Below, piece by piece: positions 7,056 to 37,852 of a stretch of 39,759 nucleotides of DNA. Source of the DNA: Candidatus Kaiserbacteria bacterium (lineage in GTDB: Bacteria; Patescibacteriota; Minisyncoccia; Phycocordibacterales; Phycocordibacteraceae); contig DRNP01000044.1 of assembly GCA_011322135.1 (NCBI GenBank), positions 1-39,759 on the forward strand, read 5' to 3'. The notes beneath the pieces are model-generated. The model saw only the letters and a list, made by a program, of their open reading frames with translations, was not told where the DNA came from and searched no databases. How positions within the stretch are numbered: the stretch's first letter is position 1; every line of letters begins with the position of its first letter. The position numbers were made by a program, and so were the translations under genes.

Positions 7056-7341
7056 GTGAAAGTATTTGTTTTACGGAAAGAGAATTGCCCTTTCTTTTTG
7101 GAAACGCTTTTATAATTTCCTCTGTATCGACTCCGTCCTGTTTTTTGTAACAATCATCTCGAAATACATTATGTAAAAGCGGTACGGACGGTGTCTTATC
7201 AACATCTATCGTCAGCTCATTAAGCTGACCAACATACGCAATAATTCCATCAAGCTCTTTAGCTAATCTTGGGAGATTCTCGTCTGAAACCGAGAGTCGC
7301 GAAAGTTCTGCCAAATGTCGTATATCTTTTGCGGAAGCCAT
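7039..7341 (-). CDS. gatC: Glu/Asp-tRNA amidotransferase subunit C
   Basis: About 100 aa, with a LAELSRLSVSDENL..L..I..YV..L pattern, immediately upstream of gatA. Confidence 0.85.
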   Translation of the reverse strand: MASAKDIRHLAELSRLSVSDENLPRLAKELDGIIAYVGQLNELTIDVDKTPSVPLLHNVFRDDCYKKQDGVDTEEIIKAFPKRKGNSLSVKQILSHEEGK

Positions 7342-9889: not shown

Positions 9890-10504
9890 TTAATACCATG
9901 GTGTTAAATATCCTGTTACAGTCGATGTATACGTTTTGCCGTGCGTCATCCACGACACGGTTGAATCAATCTTTAAATCTGAATCGGAAATTTTAGTTGC
10001 TGATATAACACGTTTGAAATTTGTTTTGGTTCCCGTATTTTGAGTCGTATATTTCCCGCTCGTTGTGAGATACAGATCTCCACATGAAGTATCATTAATA
10101 CTACACACGGCTATCGAACCTGTTCCAAACCCTATTCCACTCATTAAAGAACTTGCATCTACCGAACAAGTATTATTTGTATTGCACCTCAAAATATTAT
10201 ACTCACCGCTATAAGAAGTATTGGTTGTAAAACCATTCCACCAATATGCCGGAGAGTTCGAATTGCAAGCAATACTATTACCACTATAACAATATTTAAG
10301 GTATGAATTATCGCGCATTACACGAGCAAACTCTACCCCCTCTTGCGCCAAGAAAGATCCTGTCATTTTATCTTGCGCTATTTTTGCGGCTTGAAGACTT
10401 TGCTCTGCAGAAAAAAACGGACCTGTAACAGCGATGGCAAGAATAGCAACAGCTACAAGTGTCTCTACCAACGTAAACCCTCTTTTTTGTTTTAATATTT
10501 TCAT
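9890..10504 (-). CDS. prepilin-type N-terminal cleavage/methylation domain protein (minor pilin)
   Basis: KRG|FTLVETLVAVAILAI class III signal peptide. Confidence 0.75.
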   Translation of the reverse strand: MKILKQKRGFTLVETLVAVAILAIAVTGPFFSAEQSLQAAKIAQDKMTGSFLAQEGVEFARVMRDNSYLKYCYSGNSIACNSNSPAYWWNGFTTNTSYSGEYNILRCNTNNTCSVDASSLMSGIGFGTGSIAVCSINDTSCGDLYLTTSGKYTTQNTGTKTNFKRVISATKISDSDLKIDSTVSWMTHGKTYTSTVTGYLTPWY

Positions 10505-22663: not shown

Positions 22664-22734
22664 CTCGTCGTCACGTGCTCGCTCCGCTCGCACGGCTCTG
22701 CGACGACTCGGTTCGAATCCCACCGTCTCGCGCA
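22664..22734 (+). repeat. module half B1: 3' half of the 159-nt tRNA-Ser-derived module, with a variant hairpin
   Basis: Its last 35 nt are identical to B3. It contains ggttcgaatcccaccgtctc, an inverted copy of the last 20 nt before the final CG of the tRNA-Ser at 27327-27411. Confidence 0.8.
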
Positions 22735-22784
22735 AAAACATAATCGCACGACGCATTCGCGTCGCGCTCTTTGTTTTGCGGAGA
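22700..22784 (+). repeat. left 85-bp exact direct repeat (partner at 27248-27332)
   Basis: Compared by hand, base for base. Both copies end in gcggaga, the reverse complement of the tRNA-Ser 3' terminus. Confidence 0.9.
22746..22777 (+). terminator. intrinsic terminator after B1
   Basis: cgacgc-attc-gcgtcg hairpin followed by ctctttgtttt. Confidence 0.6.
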
Positions 22785-22876
22785 ACAAGTTATGGGCTTC
22801 GGTCACTCTCGCGGGTTTTTCTTTCACGCTTTGCGCTCATAAAAACCTCGCTCCATTGACCGCCACTCGTCGTCAC
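22778..22876 (+). repeat. module half A1: 5' half of the 159-nt module
   Basis: 99/99 identical to A3 (27124-27222) and 97/99 identical to A2. Confidence 0.85.
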
Positions 22877-22898
22877 GTGCTGGCTTGATAGTTTCGTG

Positions 22899-22907
22899 TG
22901 GTATAAT
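22899..22907 (+). promoter_or_regulatory. extended -10 promoter (TGgTATAAT) for the RT leader
   Basis: tgg at 22899-22901 plus TATAAT at 22902-22907. TTGATA lies 12 nt upstream, so it is not a canonical -35. Confidence 0.45.
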
Positions 22908-22913
22908 ACCAGA

Positions 22914-23425
22914 TACAGCACCTTGAAACAGAGTGAAGTAAGCTTCAACGAATCGTCCTGTTACAGAGCATTTGCTCAACATCCCTTGTCTCATCGGTGC
23001 ATGGGGATTTTGTTTGTTCAGGCGCGCCGTTCATTCGACGTGACTGCTAACACTAGCCTGCTCATTGAGCTCGTCTAAGTTTTAGCGGTATCCTGACAGG
23101 AGACATCAGTCATTAAGATTGACATATCCATCCGGCTACAAGCGGTAATCCGTGAGGACTGCTACTCGTCCTGGTGTAACGCTACTCAGGACGAGTAGTT
23201 GTGCCTTGCGAATTACATAGTTGTAGCCGTTACTAGAATGGTCTCACTGTTTAATTTTGCAACGAGTATGAACGACTTAAAAAATCGAACGACGTTTACT
23301 TCAAGCGTTACACACAGTGAGACGGCAATAAGTCAAATTCTTGAAGAATTTTCTCAAGATGGTGTGCAAAGCATTCACCGTTCAACTCTCTCGGGAGCTG
23401 ATCAAGGTGATACTGCGCGCCATTT
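22914..23425 (+). ncRNA. candidate structured non-coding leader / RT-associated ncRNA
   Basis: About 510 nt between the promoter and the RT gene, with only one weak small ORF. It contains a 97-nt three-helix hairpin (23133-23229) and a 10-bp long-range stem (23241-23250 with 23314-23323). Confidence 0.5.
23133..23229 (+). other. 97-nt compound hairpin (msd-like)
   Basis: Outer stem cggctacaa/ttgtagccg (9 bp), middle stem gtaat/attac (5 bp), and inner perfect 12-bp stem ctactcgtcctg/caggacgagtag with a 13-nt loop. Confidence 0.6.
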
Positions 23426-23447
23426 TTGGCGCATAGCCGTCTCTTAG
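23268..23447 (+). CDS. possible small ORF (59 aa) overlapping the RT frame
   Basis: ATG 23268 has only a weak SD. The stop TAG at 23445-23447 lies 5 nt before RT ATG 23453. The RT frame is already open from 23411. Confidence 0.25.
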   Translation: MNDLKNRTTFTSSVTHSETAISQILEEFSQDGVQSIHRSTLSGADQGDTARHFWRIAVS

Positions 23448-23452
23448 CGTAT

Positions 23453-24460
23453 ATGCGCAAACACTACACCCACAAACATCCAAAGTTAAACCTACGCACA
23501 GAAAAAGATCTGCTGCATTTTTTAAATGCCCGGAAGACCGTAAAACTCAAAGGCAAAACTGTCAGGAGGCAAGTAGCAACTAAGGATCTGTCATATCTCG
23601 ATAAAAACTCCCGCAGTGACTGGAACGATCACCCTTCAGAATCTAAGCCGGAAAATGGAAAATACGTTCGCTATATCAAACAGGGCTCGACACTAGATAT
23701 TTCAAACAGAAGGCTAAACGCCGCACTCAAACAAACTTTAGACAAGAAGGTGCCAAGCATATTCTACGGGTCAGTCTCGAAAAAAAGTCACATACAAGCC
23801 TCAAGGGCGCTGTGCAATGGGAAAAGCACCGTCATCATATCGCTGGACGTCACTAGATTCTTTGAGTCAGTGTCGCTGGCGCGAATCTTTAGGTTTTTTC
23901 GTAAAGCGGGATGTTCTACCGAGATAGCAGATATACTTGTCGAGCTCACCTGTGTACCTCTCGGTGCGAAAGAACATCCTCAGTCCGGCTTCTCAATCGC
24001 GCGCGGTTTCCCCACCTCACCGCGCCTAGCGCTGTGGGCAACATTCGAGATATTCGTGAAGTTAAATCGTATTTTACAAAAGCGTTATGGGCACTTGTCG
24101 CCAAAACTCGTGGTATTTGTGGATGATGTCGGTATTTCACTAAAGAACTCCACCCCAGAAGAGATAGAAGAAATAAAAGCACTTTCGTTTGAAACAATAG
24201 AGAGTGACAAAAATGGTATTCATTTAGTGGTACACAAGGAAGCTCCAAAGTTAAAAGTCCAGTCTATAGACCAAAATGCAGAACATCTCGGTCTTGTGAT
24301 AGGAAAAAATAGTTTGTCGCCAAGCTTTGAAACACGGCACAAAATAGGTTATGTGAAAGCTCAGCTAAGTAAGCAGACGTTATCGACTGAAAATCGGGAC
24401 AGAGCCCGAAAAAACAAACGTGGTTTAATGAACTACAAACGTTCGGTGTCCAATGGCTAG
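23453..24460 (+). CDS. RT-only reverse transcriptase (retron/Abi/UG-like); alternative TTG start at 23426
   Basis: RT1-2 GKYVRYIKQGSTLDISNRRLNAALKQTL; RT3 VIISLDVTRFFESV; RT4 ARGFPTSPRLA; RT5 VVFVDDVG (nt 24116-24127); RT7 HLGLVIG. No additional domain. Confidence 0.8.
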   Translation: MRKHYTHKHPKLNLRTEKDLLHFLNARKTVKLKGKTVRRQVATKDLSYLDKNSRSDWNDHPSESKPENGKYVRYIKQGSTLDISNRRLNAALKQTLDKKVPSIFYGSVSKKSHIQASRALCNGKSTVIISLDVTRFFESVSLARIFRFFRKAGCSTEIADILVELTCVPLGAKEHPQSGFSIARGFPTSPRLALWATFEIFVKLNRILQKRYGHLSPKLVVFVDDVGISLKNSTPEEIEEIKALSFETIESDKNGIHLVVHKEAPKLKVQSIDQNAEHLGLVIGKNSLSPSFETRHKIGYVKAQLSKQTLSTENRDRARKNKRGLMNYKRSVSNG

Positions 24461-24775
24461 CTAACGAGAATCTTTCTGATTTTTTACTATAAATATAGAG
24501 ACAAGAAAAATTAAAGTCGCGACCACATCAAAAAACTGCCACGTTCCTTTTTGTAGGTAGAATGGCGCTATTGGGTTGAACAGCACGGCAGTCAAACCAA
24601 ATGCTACTGTCCAGCCAATCCGCTCACTCTCATAGGTTTGATACGCACGATACAAGCCTATGCCACATACGACCCATCGCAGTAATTGAAAATATGAATA
24701 AGGCCAACTCAGTAACGCTCCAAATAAAAACAAAGTGGCAATAAGCGCAGACCAATTTTCCTTAAGACTTTTCAT
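24461..24775 (-). CDS. small polytopic membrane protein
   Basis: 104 aa with 3-4 hydrophobic segments and an AVLFNPIAPFYL..W..FDV motif. Its stop abuts the RT stop. Confidence 0.6.
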   Translation of the reverse strand: MKSLKENWSALIATLFLFGALLSWPYSYFQLLRWVVCGIGLYRAYQTYESERIGWTVAFGLTAVLFNPIAPFYLQKGTWQFFDVVATLIFLVSIFIVKNQKDSR

Positions 24776-24800
24776 GTTTTTTGCTCTCGACGCACAGCCC

Positions 24801-25433
24801 TTATGACTTTCTCATATCGACATCCTCTTCAATCTCCGGCAGAACACCAAAATCGTGAATCAATTTTTCTTCTGAGACGTCTTTTGAGCTAAGAGAATTG
24901 TCATAATCTTCTTTTAAGATTTGATAGCTTCCATACAACTTTTTAAATTCCTCTCTCGGGATGTGCCCATTAAACGAGCTACCATCTTTAAAAACAATAT
25001 CGTCGTGCATACTCTTAAGCTCCAGGTTCTCTTGATAGATATCCCAGCTTGGATAAACAGTGTTTATAAAAAGCCCTGCCCCTACGGTTTGAGCAGCTTC
25101 AAACATTTTTGCGTCCTTCTCTTTCTTAAGGAAGTCAAGAAAAATATAGAAGGCGCACTTTATATAATTCTTTGGATACGGTAGTAACGATCTAGGGACA
25201 AAACCTCGATACATCGCATGTATTTCGTCGATATTCATTTTGTTGAAATCGTTGAACTCCAGAAATACTTTTCGGGCAAGCGTATAGTTTGGCTCGTCAG
25301 CAGTAATTACACCCTGATCTTTTAGGCGGTTGTAAGTTTCAACCAATACCTCGACGGACACATCTTTCAAACTATCCTCTTTAGTCTCCTCGTACTTGAG
25401 GAAGTCGTGAATCTTTTTAAGTAACGCTTTCAT
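24801..25433 (-). CDS. hypothetical protein
   Basis: 210-aa acidic soluble ORF. No motif recognised. Confidence 0.55.
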   Translation of the reverse strand: MKALLKKIHDFLKYEETKEDSLKDVSVEVLVETYNRLKDQGVITADEPNYTLARKVFLEFNDFNKMNIDEIHAMYRGFVPRSLLPYPKNYIKCAFYIFLDFLKKEKDAKMFEAAQTVGAGLFINTVYPSWDIYQENLELKSMHDDIVFKDGSSFNGHIPREEFKKLYGSYQILKEDYDNSLSSKDVSEEKLIHDFGVLPEIEEDVDMRKS

Positions 25434-25440
25434 GGTTTAT

Positions 25441-25620
25441 TCAACGAATATAATCAAGAGCTTAGGCGATTTTGGAGAGAGTGTCAATCGTTGGATTTTG
25501 GTTCGTGCCATTTTCTATCTTTACAATGGTATTGAGAGACAAATCAGCAAGGCGGGCGACTCTCTCAAGAGAGTAACCTTTTTCGGCACGTATCTTTTTT
25601 TAATTATTCGCTATGCTCAT
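25441..25620 (-). pseudogene. XRE-family HTH regulator interrupted by two in-frame TAA codons
   Basis: Minus-strand translation: MSIANN*KKIRAEKGYSLERVARLADLSLNTIVKIENGTNQNPTIDTLSKIA*ALDYIR*. This is an otherwise intact HTH_3-type sequence with no frameshift. Confidence 0.7.
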
Positions 25621-25787
25621 GGTGAGATTATATAATTTAGTATATAGATTACAGTATAAAGTATGAAAGCTTTATATCTAAATTATAGCTGTTTATTACG
25701 ATTTTGCACTGAATGTGAGATGCATGGAGATAAATCCTTACAAATTCTATAAAAAGTAGTGTACGAAATGTGCGCTACTTTCATTTT

Positions 25788-25946
25788 GCGGAGAACAAGT
25801 TGTGGGCTTCGGTCACTCTCGCGGGTTTTTCTTTCACGCTTTGCGTTCATAAAAACCTCGCTCCATTGACCGCCACTCGTCGTCACTTGTTCGCTTTGCT
25901 CACAAGGCTTCGCGACGACTCGGTTCGAATTCCACCGTCTCGCGCA
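25788..25946 (+). repeat. module copy 2 (A2-B2), 159 nt
   Basis: It has 4 substitutions relative to copy 3. One of them (gccttg to gctttg) turns a C-G pair of the inner hairpin into a U-G pair. Confidence 0.85.
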
Positions 25947-26127
25947 AAAGCACACTCTTAAACGTTCTTCTTTTATTGTTTTTATATATATGCCAACACC
26001 AACACATTACCGTGTCGGGCAAAAACCGCCATATGTGTGTATACATTACCAATTCTACTTGACTTATAGCTACCGGTCGATATACTGGAAATATATCTAT
26101 GAAAAGGCACTTCGTACGGGCGCGTCC

Positions 26128-26631
26128 CTACGCGGTGCTTTTTCTTTTTGCTATCTTTCCCTCCAGTGTATCCATATAGACCATTTTGTCTCTTGCTGAT
26201 TTACGTAAAAGTGTAGAGCAACGATTCTTTTGTGGACTCAATACAGCTTGAAGCTTCTGATTATCGTAGAGATAGCGTGCTAATGAATAAAAGTCACCGT
26301 CACTTGTTATCAAGATTGCTTTATCATAGTTTTGATAATCAATCATCGTCTGCAAAACCATATCCGCATCGACATTACCTTTTACACCGTCCTTACCATT
26401 TGGTAAGACTGGTTTGAATTTAAGAATGAAACCTGCTTGTTGTAATTCATCATATATATCATTATGTTCAGGTATAAAACCAATGAACAAATATGCTTTT
26501 GTGACACGATACTTATTTTTTAAATATATTCGAAACCGTTCCCAATCAATGAACCAGCCCAAATCATACTTAGTGCCTTGGTAGACATTTTGACTATCTA
26601 TAAATGCGTAATTGCTAACTTTCTTTGGCAT
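26128..26631 (-). CDS. NYN/LabA-like (PIN-fold) ribonuclease-domain protein
   Basis: AFIDSQN, GNVDADMV and ILITSDGDF motifs. Confidence 0.75.
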   Translation of the reverse strand: MPKKVSNYAFIDSQNVYQGTKYDLGWFIDWERFRIYLKNKYRVTKAYLFIGFIPEHNDIYDELQQAGFILKFKPVLPNGKDGVKGNVDADMVLQTMIDYQNYDKAILITSDGDFYSLARYLYDNQKLQAVLSPQKNRCSTLLRKSARDKMVYMDTLEGKIAKRKSTA

Positions 26632-26643
26632 AAGTATATCTAC

Positions 26644-26811
26644 TTAAAAAAAAATACATTTCACAAACGGCTTCGGCTTTTCTCTCACCAATCGAGCAGC
26701 ATCCTCAAACAATCTTGTTTTGTCGGCATTATGAAAAACATGACGTGCGTATATTTTATTGATATTCAACTCATGTACAAGTTTTGTGATTGTTTGCTCG
26801 GTAGTCATCAT
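26644..26811 (-). CDS. possible small ORF (55 aa) upstream of the NYN gene
   Basis: MMTTEQTITKLVHELNINKIYARHVF... It starts 1 nt after the stop of the decayed XRE frame and ends 12 nt before the NYN ATG. Confidence 0.3.
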   Translation of the reverse strand: MMTTEQTITKLVHELNINKIYARHVFHNADKTRLFEDAARLVREKPKPFVKCIFF

Positions 26812-26812
26812 T

Positions 26813-26996
26813 TTATTTTAACAGTTCCGTGGTGCTAACTCCAAACACCTTAGCCAGTTTGAAACTTGTCGGCTCCTGCCCGGATCACTTCACCAAAGAT
26901 ATGGCTGCAAGGATTTTTATCTTTGAGAAGTCGGGTGGAGCGAGACAACGAGGTGTGCGAGACTCCAATGCGTAAACGCTCTGCTTGTGCGAGTTG
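26813..26996 (-). pseudogene. decayed XRE-type HTH regulator
   Basis: Minus-strand frame reads ISLVK*SGQEPTSFKLAKVFGVSTTELLK*. An upstream QLAQAERLRIGVSHTSLSRS segment lies in another frame. Confidence 0.45.
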
Positions 26997-27083
26997 CTAA
27001 TCGCAGAATAATTGTTGTTCAAAAAAAGTTCGAGCGAAATGCACAGTCTCACCGCAAAATGTAATTTCCTCCCAGAGAATGCA

Positions 27084-27123
27084 AGAGCACGACGCGCCTT
27101 CGGCGCGTCGTGCTCTTTGTTTT
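27084..27123 (+). terminator. strong hairpin plus T-run preceding module copy 3
   Basis: agagcacgacgcgcc-ttc-ggcgcgtcgtgctct followed by ttgtttt. It is preceded by a degenerate B-like remnant (about 27029-27067). Confidence 0.6.
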
Positions 27124-27282
27124 GCGGAGAACAAGTTATGGGCTTCGGTCACTCTCGCGGGTTTTTCTTTCACGCTTTGCGCTCATAAAAACCTCGCTCC
27201 ATTGACCGCCACTCGTCGTCACTTGTTCGCCTTGCTCACAAGGCTTCGCGACGACTCGGTTCGAATCCCACCGTCTCGCGCA
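27124..27282 (+). repeat. module copy 3 (A3-B3), 159 nt, intact
   Basis: It starts GCGGAGA and ends TCTCGCGCA, a possible end-pairing. It has internal stems GAACAAG/CTTGTTC, GGGTTTTT/AAAAACCT, GTCGTC/GACGAC and GCCTTG/CAAGGC. Confidence 0.85.
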
Positions 27283-27293
27283 AAAACATAATC

Positions 27294-27325
27294 GCACGAC
27301 GCATTCGCGTCGCGCTCTTTGTTTT
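27294..27325. terminator. bidirectional terminator between module 3 and tRNA-Ser
   Basis: Same hairpin as at 22746-22777, with T-runs on both strands. Confidence 0.6.
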
Positions 27326-27326
27326 G

Positions 27327-27411
27327 CGGAGACGGTGGGATTCGAACCCACGAGGGTGTTAACCCTACTTCGTTAGCAGTGAAGCGCTTTCGACCACTCA
27401 GCCACGTCTCC
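27327..27411 (-). tRNA. tRNA-Ser (anticodon GCT), class II with long variable arm, no encoded CCA
   Basis: Manual fold: GGAGACG acceptor, anticodon loop CTGCTAA, variable arm TAGGGTTAACACCCTCG, and T-arm GTGGG-TTCGAAT-CCCAC. Confidence 0.9.
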
Positions 27412-28932: not shown

Positions 28933-31094
28933 ACGCAAACGATTTACTCACTGTGCATTTTCCACGACTGCGCGCAGGGCAAAAGAGCGCACTTGATAAA
29001 TTGGGGATTGCCACAATTCGCGACTTGCTATATCACTTCCCGACTCGCTATGAAAACGCCGGTCCAACAGGCACAATCTCCGGCGTTTCTCACGGAGACG
29101 ATGTAACTTTATACGGCACGATACGAAATCCAAAAACACGCAAGGCATGGAAAAGCAGGCGCCCGATAGCGGAAGCGCTGCTGGAAGATAGTTCAGACAC
29201 GATAAAAATGATGTGGTTCAACCAACCATACATAGTGAAATCATTACACGATGGAATGCTGGTAAAAGTAACAGGGCGAGTCGCCGGAAATGATGCAAAA
29301 ATATATCTGGCAAACCCGGAAATAAATCGCACTCCTGTGCGCGCAGAAGACGTACACGACAATCTATTTGCAAATGCTACAGAAAAATCAGAACAAACTC
29401 TCTATCCTGTTTATCAGGAAAGCAAAGGAATCTCATCGCTTTGGATGTATCACGCTGTAAAGAAATGCATTGCGAGTGGAGTGCATGAACAAATAGTAGA
29501 TGCTATCCCGAAAAAAATACTAACGCGATATCACTTGCCAAAACTTGCGACGTCGCTCATATGGATACACATGCCACGAACACTAAAAGACAGTGCTTCT
29601 GCAAGAAAGCGATTCTCTTTTGAAGAAGTGTTTACAATCCAGTTGATGATGGCTCGCAGACGCCAAACAAAAGCATGCCAAAAAGCTCTACCCGTAACAG
29701 TAGACCGCGAGGCGCTCGCCAGCTTCGTGTCTTCGTTCCCTTTTAAACCGACTCGAGCGCAAGCGCGTGCAATAAATACAATCGTTGATGACTTTGAAAA
29801 ACCGCGCCCGATGATGCGACTTTTAGAAGGAGACGTGGGCAGTGGTAAAACAGCAATAGCTGCCGCAACAAGTTATCTTGTAGCGACATCACGTCCTCCG
29901 GAAAGAAAGTCCGGAACTCTTCAGGTGGCATATCTTTGCCCAACTGAGATTCTTGCAAAACAACACTTTGAAACATTTATAGCTTTTTTTAAAGACCATC
30001 CGATACAAATAGGACTTATCACAGGAAGTGGTTGTCGCAAGTTTCCGTCTAAAATCTCACGTGAAAAATCAACACATATCTCTAGAGCGCAATTTCAAAA
30101 ATGGGTTGCAAACGGAGAGATACCGATTGTCATAGGGACACACTCACTCGTACAAAAATCACTTTCATTTAAGACTCTCGCTTATGCAATCATTGACGAA
30201 CAGCACCGGTTCGGTAAAGTCCACCGGCAAGAGCTGGCTAGAAAAGACGGACTGACACCACATTTATTATCCATGACAGCGACACCTATTCCGCGCACTC
30301 TTGCGCTTACAATTTATGGAGACCTTGACCTGACACTTGTAGACCAAATGCCACTCGGACGCAAACCGGTAATAACAAAAGTTCTTGGTCCGGAAAAACG
30401 TGAAGAAGCGTATGCTCGTGTACGTAAAGAGCTTGAAAAAGGAAGGCAAGCATATGTTATATGCCCGCGTATTGACGAACCAGACCCGAACAAAGAGCTC
30501 TCTCTGCAAGCAAAATCGGTGAAAGCTGAGGCGGTGCGACTTGAAAAATACGTTTTCAAAAATACGAGCATTGGAATCTTGCACGGAAAAATGAAGCCGG
30601 CGGAAAAAGAAGAATCTATGAAAAAATTTGAAAACGGCGAAACTCAAATACTTGTTGCTACTTCCGTGGTTGAAGTCGGAGTAAACGTTCCAAACGCAAC
30701 AGTGATGCTGATAGAAGGAGCAGAGCGTTTTGGTTTGGCACAGCTACACCAGCTAAGAGGTCGTGTAATCCGCTCATCGAATCAAGCGTATTGTTTTGTA
30801 TTACCGGAATCATATGGACCGACAACTCGCGAACGACTTTCTGCACTCACAAAAGCAAAAAACGGATTTGAGCTGGCAGAGTATGATTTATCTATCAGAG
30901 GATCAGGAGAGCTTTATGGGAAACGACAATGGGGTATTTCAGATGTTGCGATGGAAGCGCTACGAAATATTAAACTTGTGGAAGCTGCACGTACAGAAGC
31001 TGACGCTTTGATAGAAAAAGATCCCGGCCTTTCAAAACACAGCGCGCTCGCTTCGCTCGCGCATAGCCGCGAATCCGACCTCCACGGAGAATAA
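28929..31094 (+). CDS. recG: ATP-dependent DNA helicase RecG
   Basis: Wedge/OB N-terminus, Walker A GDVGSGKT, DEQH box, and helicase C motifs (QLHQLRGRV). Confidence 0.93.
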   Translation: MNANDLLTVHFPRLRAGQKSALDKLGIATIRDLLYHFPTRYENAGPTGTISGVSHGDDVTLYGTIRNPKTRKAWKSRRPIAEALLEDSSDTIKMMWFNQPYIVKSLHDGMLVKVTGRVAGNDAKIYLANPEINRTPVRAEDVHDNLFANATEKSEQTLYPVYQESKGISSLWMYHAVKKCIASGVHEQIVDAIPKKILTRYHLPKLATSLIWIHMPRTLKDSASARKRFSFEEVFTIQLMMARRRQTKACQKALPVTVDREALASFVSSFPFKPTRAQARAINTIVDDFEKPRPMMRLLEGDVGSGKTAIAAATSYLVATSRPPERKSGTLQVAYLCPTEILAKQHFETFIAFFKDHPIQIGLITGSGCRKFPSKISREKSTHISRAQFQKWVANGEIPIVIGTHSLVQKSLSFKTLAYAIIDEQHRFGKVHRQELARKDGLTPHLLSMTATPIPRTLALTIYGDLDLTLVDQMPLGRKPVITKVLGPEKREEAYARVRKELEKGRQAYVICPRIDEPDPNKELSLQAKSVKAEAVRLEKYVFKNTSIGILHGKMKPAEKEESMKKFENGETQILVATSVVEVGVNVPNATVMLIEGAERFGLAQLHQLRGRVIRSSNQAYCFVLPESYGPTTRERLSALTKAKNGFELAEYDLSIRGSGELYGKRQWGISDVAMEALRNIKLVEAARTEADALIEKDPGLSKHSALASLAHSRESDLHGE

Positions 31095-31235
31095 GGTTAT
31101 CCGACATAGCCCCGAAGCGCGCCTCGCGACGGACTATGGAGCTTATTACACGCGGTTGCGACCGTTGAAAAGATGAAAAATCGAGTCATAATGCGTTTTC
31201 CACACACAAATCACACGAGTCGGAGTATAATAAAG

Positions 31236-31278
31236 ACTCTAAATTATTATTTCTAATTTATTAGAAATAATTTAGAGT
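31236..31278. other. AT-rich 43-bp near-perfect palindrome
   Basis: actctaaatt(att)atttctaa-ttta-ttagaaataatttagagt has 18-bp arms with one 3-nt bulge. Confidence 0.6.
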
Positions 31279-31290
31279 TCTTTCACAATT

Positions 31291-31480
31291 GGAAGCAGCT
31301 TTGGGTGAAGTCCGGTGTAAATCCGGCACTGTCGCGCAACGGTAACTCGCAAGAGAAGTCCGGTCCCCAAAGACGAGATGTTCACATCTCCTGCTCGTAC
31401 TCGCGCAAGGTATTTTTCATATTCGCTTTTCAAAGCGATAAAAACAACCGGCGTGTGTTCCGGTTGTTTTTATTTTTAAC
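31291..31480 (+). promoter_or_regulatory. cobalamin riboswitch with terminator expression platform
   Basis: Core GGTGAAGTCCGGTGTAAATCCGGCACTGTCGCGCAACGGTAA matches the conserved Cbl core. A B12-box-like GAGAAGTCCGGTCCCC is present, with closing stem CTTTGGG/CCCAAAG. The terminator is aaaaacaaccgg-N8-ccggttgttttt followed by a T run (31440-31477). Confidence 0.7.
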
Positions 31481-31490
31481 AGCAGACACC

Positions 31491-33614
31491 ATGACAATAC
31501 TCAATATCAAAAAAAGAAGCGGGGACTCAGTCCCTTTTAAGCGAAATAAAATATCCACAGCACTGTATAAGGCGTTTACATCACAACACCTTGAAAAGCC
31601 CGACACCGTGGAGAGCATCACATCAAAAGTTGTCGATGTGCTGACGGCGAAGTCAGAAACTGCTTCAGTTGAAGAAGTACAGAATATGGTGGAGCGCCTT
31701 TTGATGGAGGAGGGTGAGTATGCTATCGCTAAAGCTTATATGCTTTATCGCGAACAGCACGCAATTATGCGTCGTATGGCTCAAGACCCACTTGCAATCA
31801 TGGATAAATATATTTCCAATACCGACTGGCAAGTACGAGAAAACAGCAACATGGCCTATTCGCTACAAGGACTCAACAACCACATCGCCTCTGCTGTCAG
31901 TAAAAACTACTGGCTTGAACACGTGTACCCGAAAGAAGTACGCGCTGCACACGATGCTGGAGACTTTCATATACACGACCTCAACACACTCTCAGTATAT
32001 TGCGTCGGCTGGGACCTCTTTGATCTTCTGAAGCGTGGTTTTACCGGTGTTCCCGGAAAAATCTCAAGCGCCCCCGCCGCGCATCTTCGAAGCGCCCTGG
32101 GGCAAATAATAAACTTCTTCTATACCCTGCAAGGCGAAGCTGCCGGTGCACAAGCATTCTCAAACCTAGACACATTGCTTGCGCCTTTCATACGCTACGA
32201 CAATCTTTCCTACAAAGAGCTTCAACAGGAACTTCAGAGCTTTATTTTCAACCTAAATGTGCCTACGCGCGTCGGTTTTCAAACACCGTTTACAAATGTA
32301 ACACTTGATCTGCTCGTGCCGGAACATTTCCGTGGCATGCCAGTCTTGCGAGGTGGCAAACCGCAGGCAGAAACTTATGGTGAGTTCCAAGAAGAAGTCA
32401 ATATGTTTAACAAAGCGTTCCTTTCTGTTCTTTCTGAAGGTGACGCTTCCGGTCGCGTATTCACTTTTCCAATCCCAACGTACAACATCACAAAAGACTT
32501 TGACTGGGACAACCCAACTCTTGAAGGTCTGTGGGAGACAACCGCAAAATACGGACTCCCGTACTTCTCCAATTTCGTAAACTCGGATATGGACCCGTCG
32601 GACGCACGAAGTATGTGTTGTCGTCTGCGTATTGATAATCGCCAGCTTGAAAGACGTGGTGGCGGTTTGTTTGGTGCACACCCATTGACTGGCTCAATCG
32701 GTGTCGTAACCATTAACCTACCGCGCATTGCACTTCTTGCAAAAGATGAAAACGACTTTCTTGTACGTCTCGGTGATCTCATGAACATCGCCAAAGAGAG
32801 TCTCGAGATAAAGCGTAAAATGATTGAAAAGCTCACCGAAGACAACCTATACCCTTATACACGCTTTTATCTAGATGAAATGAAGAAGACAAATGGCAGC
32901 TACTGGAAAAATCACTTCTCAACGATTGGCTTGGTTGGTATGAACGAAGCAACATTAAATCTGCTGGACGCTTCAATTGCCGATGAGTCGGGCAAAGCAT
33001 TTGCTGAACGAGTATTAGATTTCATGCGCGAGCGCTTGTCCGACTACCAGGAAGAGACTGGTAACAATTACAACCTGGAGGCGACTCCTGCCGAGAGTAC
33101 TGCTTATCGTCTAGCCCTTTCAGACCAAAAAGACTTCCCAAACGCACGGTTTGCAAATGGCACCGGAAAATCGGTCAAAGCCCCCTTCTATACCAACTCA
33201 ACTCATCTACCGGTCAATTACACGGATGATATCCTTGAAATCCTTGACCTTCAAGACACGCTTCAAACAAAATATACTGGTGGCACAGTAATCCACTTCT
33301 TTATCGGCGAGCGCGTGCGTGATGCGAATGCTGTCAAAGAAATGGTGCGCATTATCTGTGAGAAATACAAACTACCGTACTTCACCATCACACCGACCTT
33401 CAGTGTCTGCTCAACCCACGGATACTTGCATGGCGAACAGCCGGCATGCCCAGAATGTGGCGGTGTATGCGAAGTGTATTCACGCATTGTGGGATACTTG
33501 CGACCAATACAACAATGGAATAATGGAAAACTTGCAGAGTTTAAAATGCGCTCAACTGTTCCTGAACAGCGGGTAGGAACAACAACCAAAGACAAAACAG
33601 ACGTATGCGCATAG
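31491..33614 (+). CDS. nrdD: anaerobic (class III) ribonucleoside-triphosphate reductase
   Basis: N-terminal ATP-cone (ILNIKKRSGDSVPFKRNKI), a C-terminal Cys4 cluster (CSTHGY...CPECGG) and glycyl-radical motif RIVGYLRP. Start trimmed from the track ORF (31305), which runs through the riboswitch. Confidence 0.92.
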   Translation: MTILNIKKRSGDSVPFKRNKISTALYKAFTSQHLEKPDTVESITSKVVDVLTAKSETASVEEVQNMVERLLMEEGEYAIAKAYMLYREQHAIMRRMAQDPLAIMDKYISNTDWQVRENSNMAYSLQGLNNHIASAVSKNYWLEHVYPKEVRAAHDAGDFHIHDLNTLSVYCVGWDLFDLLKRGFTGVPGKISSAPAAHLRSALGQIINFFYTLQGEAAGAQAFSNLDTLLAPFIRYDNLSYKELQQELQSFIFNLNVPTRVGFQTPFTNVTLDLLVPEHFRGMPVLRGGKPQAETYGEFQEEVNMFNKAFLSVLSEGDASGRVFTFPIPTYNITKDFDWDNPTLEGLWETTAKYGLPYFSNFVNSDMDPSDARSMCCRLRIDNRQLERRGGGLFGAHPLTGSIGVVTINLPRIALLAKDENDFLVRLGDLMNIAKESLEIKRKMIEKLTEDNLYPYTRFYLDEMKKTNGSYWKNHFSTIGLVGMNEATLNLLDASIADESGKAFAERVLDFMRERLSDYQEETGNNYNLEATPAESTAYRLALSDQKDFPNARFANGTGKSVKAPFYTNSTHLPVNYTDDILEILDLQDTLQTKYTGGTVIHFFIGERVRDANAVKEMVRIICEKYKLPYFTITPTFSVCSTHGYLHGEQPACPECGGVCEVYSRIVGYLRPIQQWNNGKLAEFKMRSTVPEQRVGTTTKDKTDVCA

Positions 33615-34294
33615 GTGGACTTCAACCATTTTCACTTATTGACTACCCGGGATCCGTTTCGGCAACCATATTCACAGTCGGATGTACTTTCCGCTGTCCT
33701 TACTGTCACAATCCAGAATTAGTGCTTGAAACACCGGACAAGATTATCTCTGAGGACGAAATATTTTCCTTTCTCAAAAAACGTGCCGGAGCATTGCCGG
33801 CGCTTACAATAACTGGTGGTGAACCAACTGTGCAGAACGATTTGCCGGAGTTTATGCGTCGTGTAAAAGCTCTGGGGTACAAGATTAAACTAGACTCAAA
33901 TGGTACAAATCCATCAATGCTTAAAGATATTCTTGCAGAGAAACTCGCTGACTTTGTGGCAATGGATATCAAGGCACCGCTAAGTGCCTATGCGCGTACT
34001 GTGGGAGCGGCGGTAAACGAAGCCGATATAGCAAAAAGTGTCGCCATGTTACTTTCCGGGGAAATACCTTACGAGTTCCGCACAACAGTCGTACGTTCCC
34101 AGCTATCTCCTGAGGATTTTCTGCAAATTGGTAAAGAGATAGCGGGAGCGAAGCGTTATGTCCTGCAACAATTTAATCCAGCAAAAACTCTACACCCATC
34201 ATTTCGAAAGAAACTCTCATATTCAACAGAAGAATTAGAAGCTATAGCAACAACCATGCACCCATATGTCGAACACTGCGAAATCAGAGCATAA
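33605..34294 (+). CDS. nrdG: anaerobic RNR activating radical-SAM protein
   Basis: CTFRCPYCHN (CxxxCxxC) and ITGGEP motifs. Overlaps nrdD by 10 nt. Confidence 0.9.
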   Translation: MRIGGLQPFSLIDYPGSVSATIFTVGCTFRCPYCHNPELVLETPDKIISEDEIFSFLKKRAGALPALTITGGEPTVQNDLPEFMRRVKALGYKIKLDSNGTNPSMLKDILAEKLADFVAMDIKAPLSAYARTVGAAVNEADIAKSVAMLLSGEIPYEFRTTVVRSQLSPEDFLQIGKEIAGAKRYVLQQFNPAKTLHPSFRKKLSYSTEELEAIATTMHPYVEHCEIRA

Positions 34295-35480
34295 TCACCG
34301 CATCTATCTAGACCATGCTGGTGCGACGCCACTTTCACAAACAGCGCGTAAAGCGATGCGAAACACGGCTGGTGTATATGGTAATCCCTCATCACTGCAT
34401 GCTGAGGGGCGCGCTGCGAACAAAATTCTCGTGGACTCGCGCAAAAACATTGCAGAAACGCTTGGCGTTGCTCCGACAGAAATTATCTTTACCGGCTCTG
34501 GAAGCGAGGCTGATGCACTTGCTTTGTATGGCACAGCACACGCATATCAAAAGCTTGGAAGACATATTATCGTCTCTGCCATTGAACACAAGGCAATTCT
34601 TAGGACAGCAGAGAAACTTGAACGAGAGGGATTTTCAGTCACGTATCTACCTGTTGCTTCAGACGGCAGTGTAAGCCCGCAAGCTCTAGAGGAGGCGATG
34701 CGCCCTGACACAACGTTGGTCTCTATAATGTATGCAAACAACGAGATAGGCACTGTAGAACCTATCGCTGAGCTTGCAAAAGTGGTTCAATCGCGCCGCG
34801 GCGCGCGGGGCGCACCGCTCTTTCATACAGATGCGTGCCAAGCCCCGGGGCTTCTCCCTATTGCTCCGAGCGAGCTAGGAATAGACCTTATGACAATCAA
34901 CGGAGCAAAAATATATGGACCAAAAGGAATCGCTCTCCTGTACGTGCGAGACGGAGTTTTGCTTGAACCGCTTATCAGCGGTGAGCAGGAAAAAGGTCGG
35001 CGCGGTGGCACGGAAAATATAGAGCTTATCGCTGGATTTGCTGCCGCACTCTCTGAAGCAGTAGCTATGCGTACGAAAGAGGCGTCACGCATTGCAAAAC
35101 TTCGCGACCTTTTATTTGATGAGATTATTCGTAATATTCCAAACGCACATATAAACGGCGCGCGCGAAGCGCGTCTTCCAAACAACGTGCATATATCTCT
35201 TCCTTACATTGAAGGAGAGTCGGTCTTATTGCTACTGGACGCGGAAGGCATCGCCTGCTCTACCGGTTCAGCATGTAGCGCACACGACCTTACGGCTTCA
35301 CACGTACTGCGCGCCATAGGACAAAACCCGGAGATTATGCACGGCAGTATCCGCATGACACTTGGTCGCCAGAACACAGAAGCGGACGTGCGCTTCGTCG
35401 CCAAAGCACTCAAGCGCGCTACGGCTCGCCTGAGTGCTGTTTCTTCCCTCACAGTATCGGGTATCAAAAAATCCCTATGA
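34266..35480 (+). CDS. nifS: cysteine desulfurase (class V aminotransferase, NifS/IscS type)
   Basis: IYLDHAGATP, the PLP-lysine region INGAKIYGPKG, and active-site loop STGSACSA. Confidence 0.9.
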   Translation: MSNTAKSEHNHRIYLDHAGATPLSQTARKAMRNTAGVYGNPSSLHAEGRAANKILVDSRKNIAETLGVAPTEIIFTGSGSEADALALYGTAHAYQKLGRHIIVSAIEHKAILRTAEKLEREGFSVTYLPVASDGSVSPQALEEAMRPDTTLVSIMYANNEIGTVEPIAELAKVVQSRRGARGAPLFHTDACQAPGLLPIAPSELGIDLMTINGAKIYGPKGIALLYVRDGVLLEPLISGEQEKGRRGGTENIELIAGFAAALSEAVAMRTKEASRIAKLRDLLFDEIIRNIPNAHINGAREARLPNNVHISLPYIEGESVLLLLDAEGIACSTGSACSAHDLTASHVLRAIGQNPEIMHGSIRMTLGRQNTEADVRFVAKALKRATARLSAVSSLTVSGIKKSL

Positions 35481-35932
35481 GCAATTCACAAGAAAAACGT
35501 ATAGATGTTGCCGGAGTGTGTGGCACGCCGTCGTGGGCATATAACGACACTGTGAAGGATCATTTTTTCAATCCACGAAACCTTCTCAAAGACCACGAAG
35601 ATTTTGATGCGGGCGGTACCGGAACAGTCGGCAGTCCTGCCTGTGGCGACGTAATGTTGGTTGCTATTTCGGTCGATGCAAAAACGAAAAGAATTACAGG
35701 ATGCCGTTGGCGTACATTTGGCTGTGCATCAGCGATTGCTTCAACCTCTATGATGTCTATTATGGTCACAGAGAATGGCGGTATGACACTCGCACGAGCT
35801 CGGCGCCTAAAACCAGAAGAGATTATAGACAGGCTCGGTGGTTTGCCGGACAGAAAATATCACTGCTCGGTTCTAGGACACGAAGCTCTGCGTGAGGCAG
35901 TTGAAGATTATTTGAACCATGAGCTATCGTAA
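35477..35932 (+). CDS. nifU: NifU/IscU-type Fe-S scaffold
   Basis: Three scaffold Cys residues in GSPACGD, FGCASAIAS and YHCSVLG. Confidence 0.88.
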   Translation: MSNSQEKRIDVAGVCGTPSWAYNDTVKDHFFNPRNLLKDHEDFDAGGTGTVGSPACGDVMLVAISVDAKTKRITGCRWRTFGCASAIASTSMMSIMVTENGGMTLARARRLKPEEIIDRLGGLPDRKYHCSVLGHEALREAVEDYLNHELS

Positions 35933-36614
35933 CTGGCGCGTCACAGAGCGTCGTACCGAAACACCTAGCGTCACGACGCTCACATTAGTACCTGAACACG
36001 GCGAAATACCGAAATTCATCTCTGGACAGTTCGTAAACGTGGTCTTTCCACACCTCGGAGAAGAAGCTAAGTCGTATTCTATTGCTAGCGCGCCCGAGGA
36101 TGATTTTCTGGCGCTATCTGTCCGCGCGCAAGGAGCTTTTTCGCACGCCCTTATTTCACTTGCCGTTGGCGACACTCTTCAAATATCTGAACCTTGCGGT
36201 TTCTTCTATCCAGAGGATGAAACAACGCCAAAAGTCTTCGTTGCCGCAGGAATTGGCATTATGCCATTTGTGTCTATGTTACGGCACGAGCAAGCGATTG
36301 GAGGGCATGCACAGACGCTTATACTTTATTCAAACCGTTCACCAAACGATGTCCCTTTTCTAAATGAGCTTTCTGAGCACGAGCAAGAAAATCGCTGCAC
36401 GGTCAGACACTTCATTACCGGAGAAAATGACAACACTATCAAAAACGCTACCTCTAGGCGCATAGTCACGGAAGATCTCTCGACGGCAAACACCCAAGCA
36501 CCAAATGCTATTTTTTTTCTCTGTGGCAGCATCGGTTTTGTACGCGACATGCGCACCTTAAGCAAAGAAGCCGGCGTCCTCGAGGAAAACATTTTCACAG
36601 AAGCATTTTTTTAG
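35919..36614 (+). CDS. FNR-family FAD/NAD(P)-binding oxidoreductase (flavodoxin/ferredoxin reductase-like)
   Basis: FAD motif KSYSIAS and NAD(P)-binding motif VFVAAGIGIMPF. No Fe-S domain. Confidence 0.75.
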   Translation: MSYRNWRVTERRTETPSVTTLTLVPEHGEIPKFISGQFVNVVFPHLGEEAKSYSIASAPEDDFLALSVRAQGAFSHALISLAVGDTLQISEPCGFFYPEDETTPKVFVAAGIGIMPFVSMLRHEQAIGGHAQTLILYSNRSPNDVPFLNELSEHEQENRCTVRHFITGENDNTIKNATSRRIVTEDLSTANTQAPNAIFFLCGSIGFVRDMRTLSKEAGVLEENIFTEAFF

Positions 36615-36905
36615 AAACCCTCCCTAAGGAGAACACGTGCTACATTCAGCAAATATCACCTGTCGTGCATTTTTGTACAACGTATAAAGTATAAAAACAC
36701 AATCGGCACATAACTGAATCTCGTATATTGCAATAAAGCCCTGCAAGCCACTGATGCTAAACATCGCTGACATAGCGCCCGCAAACGCGGACATCAATGC
36801 TGGGCAAAATCGGCGAACAACACAAAAAGGTATTAAACTTCATCAATAACGCCCGAGACTGTAGCAGACACGCCGTCGCATCGTTTCTTCTTAAATGCAT
36901 ACGTA

Positions 36906-37083
36906 GGAAACGACAATGGGGTGTCTCAGACGTTGCGATGGAAGCACTACGAAAAATATTAAACTTGTGGAAGCTACGCGTACAGAAGCTGACGCTTTGA
37001 TAGAAAAAGATCCCGACCTTTCAAAACACAGCGCGCTCGCTTCGCTCGCGCGCCGTGGCGAACGCGACCTCCACGGAGAATAA
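36906..37083 (+). pseudogene. frameshifted duplicate of the recG 3' end (corresponds to 30919-31094)
   Basis: RQWGVSDVAMEALR matches RecG RQWGISDVAMEALR. A 2-nt insertion (cgaaaaatatt versus cgaaatatt) breaks the frame, and the tail is diverged. Confidence 0.8.
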
Positions 37084-37172
37084 TGCTTCTTCCAGAATTA
37101 CAATGATAATACAAAACATTCATAATTCCCTCGCACTTATTTATAAAAATTCACGTACACAAAAAGTTATAA

Positions 37173-37197
37173 AAACCCCGACACTGTGTCGAGGTTT
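37173..37197 (-). terminator. intrinsic terminator of the 75-aa gene
   Basis: On the minus strand, aaacctcgaca-cagt-gtcggggttt is followed by ttttataac. Confidence 0.6.
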
Positions 37198-37222
37198 CAT
37201 CTTTTTATTAAAGAACTTTATT

Positions 37223-37450
37223 TCATTTCTCCGCAATGGACTGGAGTTGCGCCTTCTGCTTTGCAGACATGTCTCGAAGTACCGAAACAGCCCACTCGGC
37301 AAAAGCCTCAGCATCAGTTGTTTCAGTACCTAACTCTACGACGATACCCGCTACAAGCTCCTCCGGGTCAGGGTTTAGATGAAATCCCTCCCGGAAAAGT
37401 CTACTTAACATAAACTTTATGGCAATAACGCCATATTGTGCTTTACGCAT
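37223..37450 (-). CDS. hypothetical small protein (75 aa)
   Basis: AAGGAGG lies upstream of ATG 37450, and the gene has its own terminator. No motif recognised. Confidence 0.5.
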   Translation of the reverse strand: MRKAQYGVIAIKFMLSRLFREGFHLNPDPEELVAGIVVELGTETTDAEAFAEWAVSVLRDMSAKQKAQLQSIAEK

Positions 37451-37702
37451 GTAACACCTCCTTCTTTAGAAGTTATGCAAATCTCATGACCTACAATAAA
37501 TTATTGTAGCATTTTTATCACCACAAGTCAACATATTGTGGTGACGTCTTACACGCCTGATGTGTAATAAAATATATGGTGCGTGCTTATAAAACGTAAA
37601 CGGAGTCAATTTTTATAATTTAATATCTAATCTAAAATAAACACCCTCATTAAAAAATAATAGAGCTCCAAGTTTTTGTGCATTTATCGTACCCGATACT
37701 AT

Positions 37703-37753
37703 GCGCTCGCTTCGCTCGCGCATAGCCGCGAATCCGACCTCCACGGAGAATAA
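37703..37753 (+). repeat. 51-bp exact copy of the last 51 nt of recG (31044-31094)
   Basis: Base-for-base comparison of gcgctcgcttcgctcgcgcatagccgcgaatccgacctccacggagaataa. Confidence 0.9.
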
Positions 37754-37777
37754 TACACATAGAAATGTTTATGCTTG

Positions 37778-37852
37778 TCCGCCCGCTTGGACTCGAACCA
37801 AGGACCCTGGAGGTATAAGCTCCATGCTCTAAACCAACTGAGCTACGGGCGG
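37778..37852 (-). tRNA. tRNA-Ile with anticodon TAT (UAU)
   Basis: Manual fold: CCGCCCG/CGGGCGG acceptor, D-arm GCTC..GAGC, anticodon stem TGGAG/CTCCA with loop CTTATAC, and T-arm CTTGG-TTCGAGT-CCAAG. Confidence 0.8.

Follow-up and report, generated by a model that had tools for sequence, protein, structure and literature searches.

A repeat-scaffolded accessory islet with a type VI-like retron beside tRNA-Ser(GCT) in a Kaiserbacteria-like genome

Repeats and modules at the tRNA-Ser(GCT) 3' end

The contig DRNP01000044.1 (assembly GCA_011322135.1), of which the analysed stretch of 39,759 nt is referred to as the window, derives from a Patescibacteria genome of Paceibacteria/Kaiserbacteria-like affiliation and carries, beside a tRNA-Ser(GCT) gene, a type VI-like retron and two gene cassettes within a repeat-scaffolded hotspot. 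The original prediction described this segment as a 4.5-kb accessory islet, bracketed by exact 85-bp direct repeats ending in the tRNA 3' terminus and devoid of an integrase. Its scaffold is formed by copies of a module composed of two halves, A and B, with the following elements:

22664-22882, plus strand: B1-A1, a circularly permuted copy of 1.08 units
22664-22784, plus strand: module half B1 with the P2 hairpin, sense tRNA piece, terminator and core
22667-22707, plus strand: P2 hairpin of B1
22700-22784, plus strand: left 85-nt exact direct repeat, crossed by contig L001
22710-22729, plus strand: sense copy of tRNA-Ser from the T loop to the 3' end in B1, followed by G-CGCAAAA
22746-22767: bidirectional terminator hairpin of B1
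22766-22876, plus strand: left 111-nt exact repeat
22774-22784, plus strand: core TTTTGCGGAGA of B1
22774-22882, plus strand: module half A1 with the core, a degenerate reverse-complement tRNA end (GCGGAGA…TTCG) and hairpin P1 (GGTCAC…TGACC)
25784-25949, plus strand: A2-B2, which stops after CGCAAAA (no terminator, no core)
27083-27117, plus strand: strong terminator hairpin, similar to the final part of a B half, upstream of the core and A3
27112-27222, plus strand: right 111-nt exact repeat
27120-27332, plus strand: A3-B3, a complete module of 202 nt from core to core
27248-27332, plus strand: right 85-nt exact repeat, crossed by contig L066
27258-27277, plus strand: tRNA-like sense piece of B3
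27326-27411, minus strand: tRNA-Ser(GCT), found by ARAGORN and Rfam, its last 6-7 nt within the right repeat

The 85-nt direct repeat (22700-22784 = 27248-27332) is exact and maximal, widens to 121 nt at 93% identity (22664-22784 versus 27212-27332) and terminates in both copies with GCGGAGA. The right copy shares its end with the last 6-7 nt of the tRNA gene on the minus strand, the bounds of which are 27326-27411 according to ARAGORN and 27327-27411 according to Rfam. The 11-nt core TTTTGCGGAGA occurs at four sites (22774, 25784, 27120 and 27322), so that the identity, the ends and the shorter core copies reported originally are all confirmed. Overlooked at that stage were the ~202-nt three-copy module, the inverted copies of tRNA sequence on the plus strand and a second, longer exact repeat of 111 nt (22766-22876 = 27112-27222, offset 4346), which exists because half A is duplicated as well. 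A repeat of this kind would not arise by chance: its 20-nt and 27-nt sub-patterns gave 0 matches in 100 shuffles.

The 85-nt repeat is genuine and not an assembly duplication because independent contigs cross both junctions. A hydrothermal-vent metagenome assembled independently with MEGAHIT (ENA ERZ940665) provides three contigs which together cover the region at 100% identity. L001 (11344-22826) leads from unique flank through the entire left repeat into A1, L002 (22750-27238) holds the entire interior in a single contig and L066 (27206-34932) connects the hairpin specific to B3 with the tRNA across the right repeat; the Logan contigs of a second sequencing run, SRR7787808, are concordant with the order in the window. 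That an assembler created the repeat or the segment order is hardly credible. Breaks within modules in the public assemblies L001, L002, L003 and L058 would suit such an artefact, but contigs built at k=127 span the whole 85-nt repeat with unique sequence on either side at both its left (L001) and right (L066) occurrence, and the inner order stems from one contig (L002) with which the second sequencing run agrees. An assembly duplication, which the original prediction had named as a possible objection, is thereby refuted.

The A-B module is non-coding, ca. 202 nt long and present in three copies, all on the plus strand. Half A proceeds from the degenerate reverse complement of the tRNA 3' end (GCGGAGA…TTCG) to the hairpin GGTCAC…TGACC, and half B from P2 via the 20-nt GGTTCGAATCCCACCGTCTC and G-CGCAAAA to the bidirectional terminator and the core. 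GGTTCGAATCCCACCGTCTC corresponds to the T loop and the 3' acceptor strand of the tRNA on the strand opposite to the tRNA gene. These plus-strand copies from the T loop to the 3' end start at 22710, 25922 and 27258 and are inverted relative to the gene, each module containing tRNA-Ser 3'-end sequence in both orientations. A1 closes with 17 nt of a P2 5' arm. The three copies belong to two sequence lineages: A2-B2 forms a separate lineage and is 98% identical to the copy of locus L005 (see below), and B1-A1 is a mosaic, its hairpin arms being of one lineage while the central 177 nt match the end of B3 and the start of A3 exactly. Three module copies of two lineages bear out the earlier proposal of serial events at one site. 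Half A also holds a 16-codon open reading frame (ORF) with a Shine-Dalgarno sequence, which differs between copies by ATG/GTG and one synonymous change.

Several identities of the module were considered and rejected or set aside. A tmRNA/tRNA-like gene is contradicted by negative ARAGORN and Rfam results and by the T-stem 5' strand, which is not complementary and cannot pair; the Rfam search matched no family at either the gathering or the E-value thresholds. The 16-codon ORF as a toxin or leader is discounted by its absence from the module versions of loci L041 and L059. A primer-binding site or long-terminal-repeat-like role of B-A-B was dismissed, as complementarity in the window does not exceed 7 nt and CCA is missing from the tRNA copy. 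As for a miniature inverted-repeat transposable element, inverted tRNA-derived copies are present, but every copy lies at a tRNA/tmRNA 3' end and the direct repeats measure 12-25 nt. Finally, an integron array is incompatible with the lack of IntI, with cassettes that have their own regulator genes and with modules that are not attC-like.

A module family at tRNA and tmRNA 3' ends

A metagenome scan revealed a B-A-B array without cargo directly 3' of a tRNA-Ser(GGA) gene in contig UOEV01000005 (L005), with the same 202-nt period as in the window and with modules 93-98% identical to those of the window. The corresponding metagenome-assembled genome (MAG), MNBD_CPR01, belongs to a sister strain and matches the window at about 93% identity along 3.7 kb. 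L005 therefore represents a second locus of the same lineage, and a module transfer between unrelated genomes, which had been considered for L005, was withdrawn. The array adjoins a different tRNA-Ser gene from that in the window and is the only cargo-free module array; its B-A-B-tRNA layout is exactly the product expected of recombination between A1 and A3 in the window. A single cargo-free module is found at the syntenic tRNA-Ser(GCT) gene of L041, preceded by a promoter-like TTGACA/TATAAA, and the modules of L044, L040, L041 and L005 occur without any reverse transcriptase (RT) gene.

In a census of all tRNAs in the fetched Patescibacteria loci, an exact copy of the gene's own 3' end (at least 11 nt, direct or inverted, at most 300 nt downstream) was detected for 10 of the 33 tRNA-Ser genes (GCT, GGA, TGA) and for 6 of the 42 other tRNAs, mostly tRNA-Ile(TAT); kinship to the module was judged by eye and accepted for 8-10 of the 33 tRNA-Ser genes, for the 6 other tRNAs and for two tmRNA genes. 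Two transfer-messenger RNA (tmRNA) genes (L040, L032) also possess a copy of their own 3' end. The direct repeats of the family are 12-25 nt long and match the local gene. In the best-preserved members (L044, L027, L037, L040 and L059) the direct copy comprises about 19 nt and ends between T55 and C56, and a common T-loop breakpoint, …TTCG/GTCAC…, is recognizable across the tRNA-Ser, tRNA-Ile and tmRNA modules. The modules lie 3' of the tRNA/tmRNA genes on the opposite strand. Those at tRNA-Ser (L044, L059) and at tmRNA (L032, L040) have the interior motif GGTCACGAGTYACTAA…TAAGTRCTCTCGACCCCG in common, which is followed by a sense copy starting with TTCGAATCC, then by one or more terminators and then by the gene. 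CCA is excluded from the tRNA-derived copy also where the gene itself encodes it (L047), and therefore the copies derive from DNA and not from mature tRNA.

The modules of the window are a diverged member of this recurrent and apparently unnamed family of tRNA/tmRNA-tail modules. We consider the family, with its T-loop breakpoint and its paired sense and antisense tRNA copies, the more novel part of the analysis compared with the islet itself. Scans with exact patterns gave 0 matches in genome contigs and 0 or chance matches in coding DNA in viral contigs, an nhmmer profile of the module retrieved little beyond its training set, and no large elements bounded by distant tRNA repeats were detected in the fetched loci.

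Three further observations concern tRNA- or tmRNA-derived pieces. Downstream of the tmRNA genes (L040 14277-14500, L032 20661-20840) the copied tmRNA 3' end (19-25 nt) passes at the T loop into GTCACGAGTTACTAA…, a motif which also adjoins tRNA-Ser. L047 (10836-11290) contains, downstream of tRNA-Glu, two tandem units of ~116 nt, each resembling the 3' part of that tRNA gene with an insertion of ~42 nt in the T loop. In L004 (324-1800), a 28-nt tRNA-Ser-like piece with an extra G (GGTTCGAATCCCACCGTCTCGCGCC) has an abrupt start, which precedes by about 130 nt the gene of a 436-aa protein, by visual judgement a putative DDE/rve-type transposase.

Cargo and chromosomal surroundings

The DNA between the module copies contains a retron on the plus strand and two cassettes on the minus strand:

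22898-23260 (region), plus strand: structured non-coding RNA (ncRNA), its long msd-like hairpin lying around 23130-23230
about 22904-22912, plus strand: promoter-like TGgTATAAT of the retron
23241-23447, plus strand: 69-aa ORF abutting the RT gene, of doubtful reality and weakly conserved
23426-24460, plus strand: retron RT (PADLOC RT_VI, 7.6e-26; Pfam RVT_1)
24461-25622, minus strand: cassette 1 with an XRE remnant, p210 and DUF6804
24461-24775, minus strand: DUF6804 membrane protein
24801-25433, minus strand: p210, a 210-aa protein
25440-25622, minus strand: XRE helix-turn-helix (HTH) remnant of cassette 1 with two in-frame TAA codons
26128-27052, minus strand: cassette 2 with an XRE remnant, p55 and NYN
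26128-26631, minus strand: NYN-domain nuclease
26644-26811, minus strand: p55, a 55-aa ORF
about 26815-27052, minus strand: frameshifted XRE remnant of cassette 2

The retron unit (22898-24460) appears to be type VI-like. Its membership rests on the RT and the ncRNA because the 69-aa ORF gives no HTH signal with Pfam or PADLOC. The RT matches the PADLOC model RT_VI with 7.6e-26 compared to 1e-12 for the next-best model, and translation from the ATG at 23453 yields the 335-aa RT annotated in public assemblies. The ncRNA stretch 22915-23260 has a fold z-score of -5.4. The small toxin protein SP of type VI retrons was not recognised upstream of the RT. Homologues of the RT in Patescibacteria share 53-70% identity, and no solved structures related to it by sequence were found. 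Type VI retrons have been characterised as ncRNA(-SP)-HTH-RT systems (Retron-Vpa2, bioRxiv 10.1101/2025.10.22.683967; Retron-Sen3, bioRxiv 10.64898/2026.04.27.721009); the set already includes a member from the Candidate Phyla Radiation (CPR; Levybacteria), and a Cro/C1-type HTH gene lies upstream of or overlaps the RT gene in about 78% of the members. The unit of the window agrees with them in its best match to RT_VI and in a structured ncRNA directly upstream on the same strand. It deviates in that no HTH or SP is recognisable upstream of the RT, the neighbouring XRE genes being broken and located on the opposite strand.

DNA homology with the retron loci L059-L065 starts at 22898 and spans 22898-24448 only, the ncRNA region being conserved along with the RT, which is 64-68% identical in the closest relatives. 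This places the modules outside the retron, and a role of the module as part of the retron RNA was rejected on the same ground. In L059 and L060 the retron resides aboard an element with a 453-aa large serine recombinase (LSR) and a methyltransferase, and in L062 a 65%-identical retron is situated 1.5 kb 3' of tRNA-Ser(GCT) between inverted repeats of 135 nt and 96 nt (6963-7196 versus 9982-10214). As its relatives sit on the LSR element or amid other repeats, the retron is, to judge from these contexts, a travelling cargo unit; the RT is not the mobility enzyme, and nothing ties it to mobility.

The serine-recombinase elements of L059 (7308-13400) and L060 (7308-13235) combine a 68%-identical retron, an N6/N4 methyltransferase and the LSR in two chromosomal contexts, and the left border of the L059 element adjoins a diverged tRNA-Ser-tail module without a neighbouring tRNA. 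In L062 (5600-10265) a large palindrome, CCGCAAAAT…ATTTTGCGG, precedes the retron, and a tRNA-Ser 5' fragment is positioned 165 nt upstream of the intact gene.

Both cassettes are headed by a broken XRE gene. That of cassette 1 reads MSIANN*KKIRAEKGY…SKIA*ALDYIR, with TAA at positions usually occupied by Leu or Lys. For p210 about 90 homologue clusters exist, all unannotated and some fused to DUF6804; the homologues usually precede a small membrane protein gene, the pair is not tRNA-linked, and p210 and the small membrane protein look like a conserved two-gene unit.

The order tRNA-Ser(GCT)-p64-MFS-recG is kept in the closest loci (L006, L015, L008 and L007; RecG 77-80% identical), the DNA 3' of tRNA-Ser(GCT) being different in each of them. 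As the original prediction held, the segment is accessory: the RT, NYN, p210, DUF6804 and p55 genes and the A-B module are found in 0 of 50 recG-syntenic Patescibacteria loci, which carry other DNA at the site and whose RecG is only 50-80% identical to that of the window. Since these relatives show CTCCGC/ag… after the tRNA, aaaacaaagag… is to be counted as module sequence in the window. Among the larger ORFs of the window that were tested, pilus genes included, none showed a recombinase or transposase domain, which upholds the earlier statement for this set; five of the ORFs gave no Pfam match and two ORFs of the pilus region have no domain record. Competence and pilus genes are both present in the window.

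A second repeat-bracketed islet of about 6.6 kb (30919-37753) extends between recG and tRNA-Ile(TAT). The last 51 nt of recG (31044-31094) recur as an exact copy at 37703-37753, at a distance of 24 nt from the tRNA-Ile(TAT) 3' end, and a further copy of the recG end (178 nt at 91%, 36906-37083) lies inside the islet near its right end. The islet encodes nrdD, nrdG, nifS, nifU and an FNR-like reductase, has a GC content of 0.45-0.50 versus 0.38-0.44 elsewhere and contains no recombinase. In relatives, tRNA-Ile follows 0.5-3 kb after recG.

Origin of the islet

We lean, with reservations, towards the reading that the segment next to the tRNA-Ser(GCT) 3' end is a decayed accretion island lacking an integrase, similar to a cis-mobilizable element (CIME) and assembled on tRNA-tail modules resembling attachment (att) sites. 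The fit to a CIME follows from cargo that is flanked and interrupted by modules of two lineages, from broken regulators and from the absence of a mobility gene; both XRE genes are broken, as expected of a decayed element. As to the origin of the modules, they would be att-type footprints of site-specific integration into the tRNA T loop/3' end and represent arms of former elements of which only about 200 nt are left between the repeats, persisting as recombination substrates. This att-type reading is suggested by a direct repeat from the T loop to the gene end, by a conserved element side of a fixed breakpoint and by several tRNA/tmRNA targets. Recombination in or beside resident modules would have brought in the cargo between the module copies, in two or more steps. 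Self-mobility of such an island is not expected; excision or transfer would proceed only via a recombinase acting in trans or via DNA uptake and homologous exchange through the modules. As proposed originally, the segment abuts the tRNA 3' end and its geometry allows a deletion which keeps the tRNA intact. Recombination between the 85-nt repeats would remove 4,548 bp and leave B-tRNA, and that between the 111-nt repeats would remove 4,346 bp and leave B-A-B-tRNA, with an intact tRNA in either case. Repeats of 85 and 111 nt are within the length range usable by RecA.

A number of results weigh against this reading. The direct repeat shared by the window itself and the tRNA measures 7-11 nt only. 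The cargo borders are scattered (22882/22883 in a P2 5' arm, 25949 after CGCAAAA and left of the 27083 terminator) and coincide neither with the T-loop breakpoint nor with a single core. The contigs show integrated junctions only, neither an empty site in a close relative nor a circle junction being seen; a right-flank orthologue in the sister MAG, sought for the empty site, is not on record. No full-length element with module arms was encountered in the fetched loci, and no cognate integrase was identified there. The composition of the islet, which the original prediction proposed to compare with that of the flanks, is native (GC 0.418 versus 0.423; tetranucleotide distance inside the background of the window). 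The recG-end copies of the second islet suit a generic homologous (Campbell-type) insertion no less well than a tRNA-specific integration. Moreover, the compensatory changes in P2 and the module fold z-score of -5.3 leave room for a function as RNA or structured DNA. Of the earlier assignment to tRNA-targeted integrative elements, the accessory nature of the segment at a tRNA end, its serial build-up and the lack of an integrase thus stand, and the picture of a single element delimited by a duplicated (att) tRNA end does not. The segment is not one clean att-bounded element because only 6-7 of the 85 nt are tRNA-derived and the module also occurs without cargo (L005 and L041, among others), and a single site-specific crossover does not fit because the cargo borders lie at several points of the module. 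In view of the scattered borders, the B1-A1 mosaic and the recG-bracketed second islet, generic homologous insertion and gene conversion probably contributed.

As the sole mechanism, homologous insertion and gene conversion constitute the main rival of the accretion island. According to this less probable but serious alternative, the modules are nothing but conserved repeats, the cargo entered by natural transformation or a single Campbell-type crossover through module homology and leaves by RecA-mediated recombination between the repeats, and no site-specific recombinase was ever involved in building the islet. The exact repeats of 85 and 111 nt, the two-lineage mosaic of B1-A1, as gene conversion would give, the several positions of the cargo borders, the native composition and the competence and pilus genes all agree with it, as does the second islet, whose bracketing recG 3'-end copies (51 nt exact, 178 nt at 91%) are free of any tRNA sequence. 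However, it leaves unexplained both the existence of the modules and the same T-loop stop of the 5' copy beside many tRNA/tmRNA genes, and efficient RecA recombination requires more homology than the 12-20 nt of the direct repeats. A rather improbable alternative regards A-B as a gene family for a functional small RNA or a structured DNA (a tRNA 3'-end mimic or antisense pair, or a recombinase guide) and the repeats as a by-product of duplication. The modules fold strongly (z-score -5.3 versus shuffles), the 5' segment varies with the local tRNA sequence from genome to genome, a promoter-like TTGACA/TATAAA precedes the L041 copy, a terminator is located at the module 3' end and half A offers the Shine-Dalgarno-preceded 16-codon ORF with its ATG/GTG and synonymous changes. 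P2 of B1 differs from the other copies by two compensatory base-pair changes, a sign of structure that is suggestive at most, as it is based on 3 distinct sequences and is equalled by 62 of 500 shuffles. Against an RNA stand the missing Rfam match, the lack of a consistent promoter, terminators directly upstream of A1 and A3 in the window, the absence of the mini-ORF from L041 and L059 and the closing helix, which consists of two tRNA-derived copies, so that its covariation is not independent. Still more doubtful is the idea that the modules are an undescribed family of protein-less site-specific mobile or guide elements of Patescibacteria, with a 5' segment that matches the local tRNA 3' end up to T55/C56 and is followed by a conserved structured core. 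As RNA or folded DNA, they would direct recombination to the T-loop palindrome TTCGAA and serve as landing pads for defence cassettes such as the retron. It is very unlikely that the islet owes its mobility to the retron RT through a retro-element mechanism, such as reverse transcription primed by tRNA or target, with the tRNA-complementary segment as primer-binding site. The RT is the sole nucleic-acid polymerase aboard, and half A begins with a stretch complementary to the tRNA 3' end, in other genomes over ~19 nt up to the T loop, but in the window this complementarity amounts to 7 nt only. The retron homology (22898-24448) leaves the modules outside, modules without RT occur in L005, L041, L044 and L040, the copy excludes CCA even if gene-encoded (L047) and is hence DNA-derived, and relatives of the RT travel on a serine-recombinase element. 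To our knowledge, retron RTs are not known to mobilise DNA.

CIMEs and tandem accretion at tRNA 3' ends of the ICESt1 type are established concepts (PMC5704250). The accretion island favoured here shares with them its position beside a tRNA 3' end, flanking direct repeats, internal copies that mark serial events, the lack of integration and transfer genes, decayed genes aboard and a mobility possible only in trans. It differs in that its repeats are composite modules of ~200 nt, in which the tRNA-derived part ranges from 6-7 nt in the window to ~19 nt elsewhere and which also hold an inverted copy of the tRNA end, in that the cargo borders are not placed at one core, and in that the fetched loci yielded neither a cognate integrase nor a parent integrative and conjugative or integrative and mobilizable element. 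We know of no description of CIME-like islands in Patescibacteria. Another precedent (PMC3146451) is offered by the ssrA (tmRNA)-specific islands arranged in tandem in Dehalococcoides. Accessory DNA at the 3' end of a tRNA-like gene and repeated copies of its end are common features, the modules of L040 and L032 lying 3' of tmRNA. The Dehalococcoides islands reportedly carry a recombinase and simple ssrA repeats of ~20 bp, unlike the islet of the window, which has no recombinase and whose repeats are structured modules. Minimal mobile elements of Neisseria are cassettes flanked by homology and exchanged by transformation; like them, the islet presents alternative cassettes between conserved flanks without a mobility gene, but its flanks are small tRNA-3'-end modules and not housekeeping genes.

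Few reports known to us deal with the gain and loss of accessory and defence genes in the small genomes of Patescibacteria (CPR). If the modules were recombination sites, they could point the way to CPR islands and to the recombinase that is missing; as functional RNAs, they would constitute a new class. For annotation, the locus advises caution, as a repeat ending in a tRNA terminus is by itself no proof of a self-mobile element.

Two minor observations relate to the chromosomal interval around the islet. The tRNA-Ile(TAT) gene (37777-37852 in the window) is conserved near recG throughout this Patescibacteria clade (L006-L043). In L009-L012 and L017, tRNA-Ser(GCT) is found on the other strand directly after comF, and the comF-recG interval is therefore both rearranged and variable.

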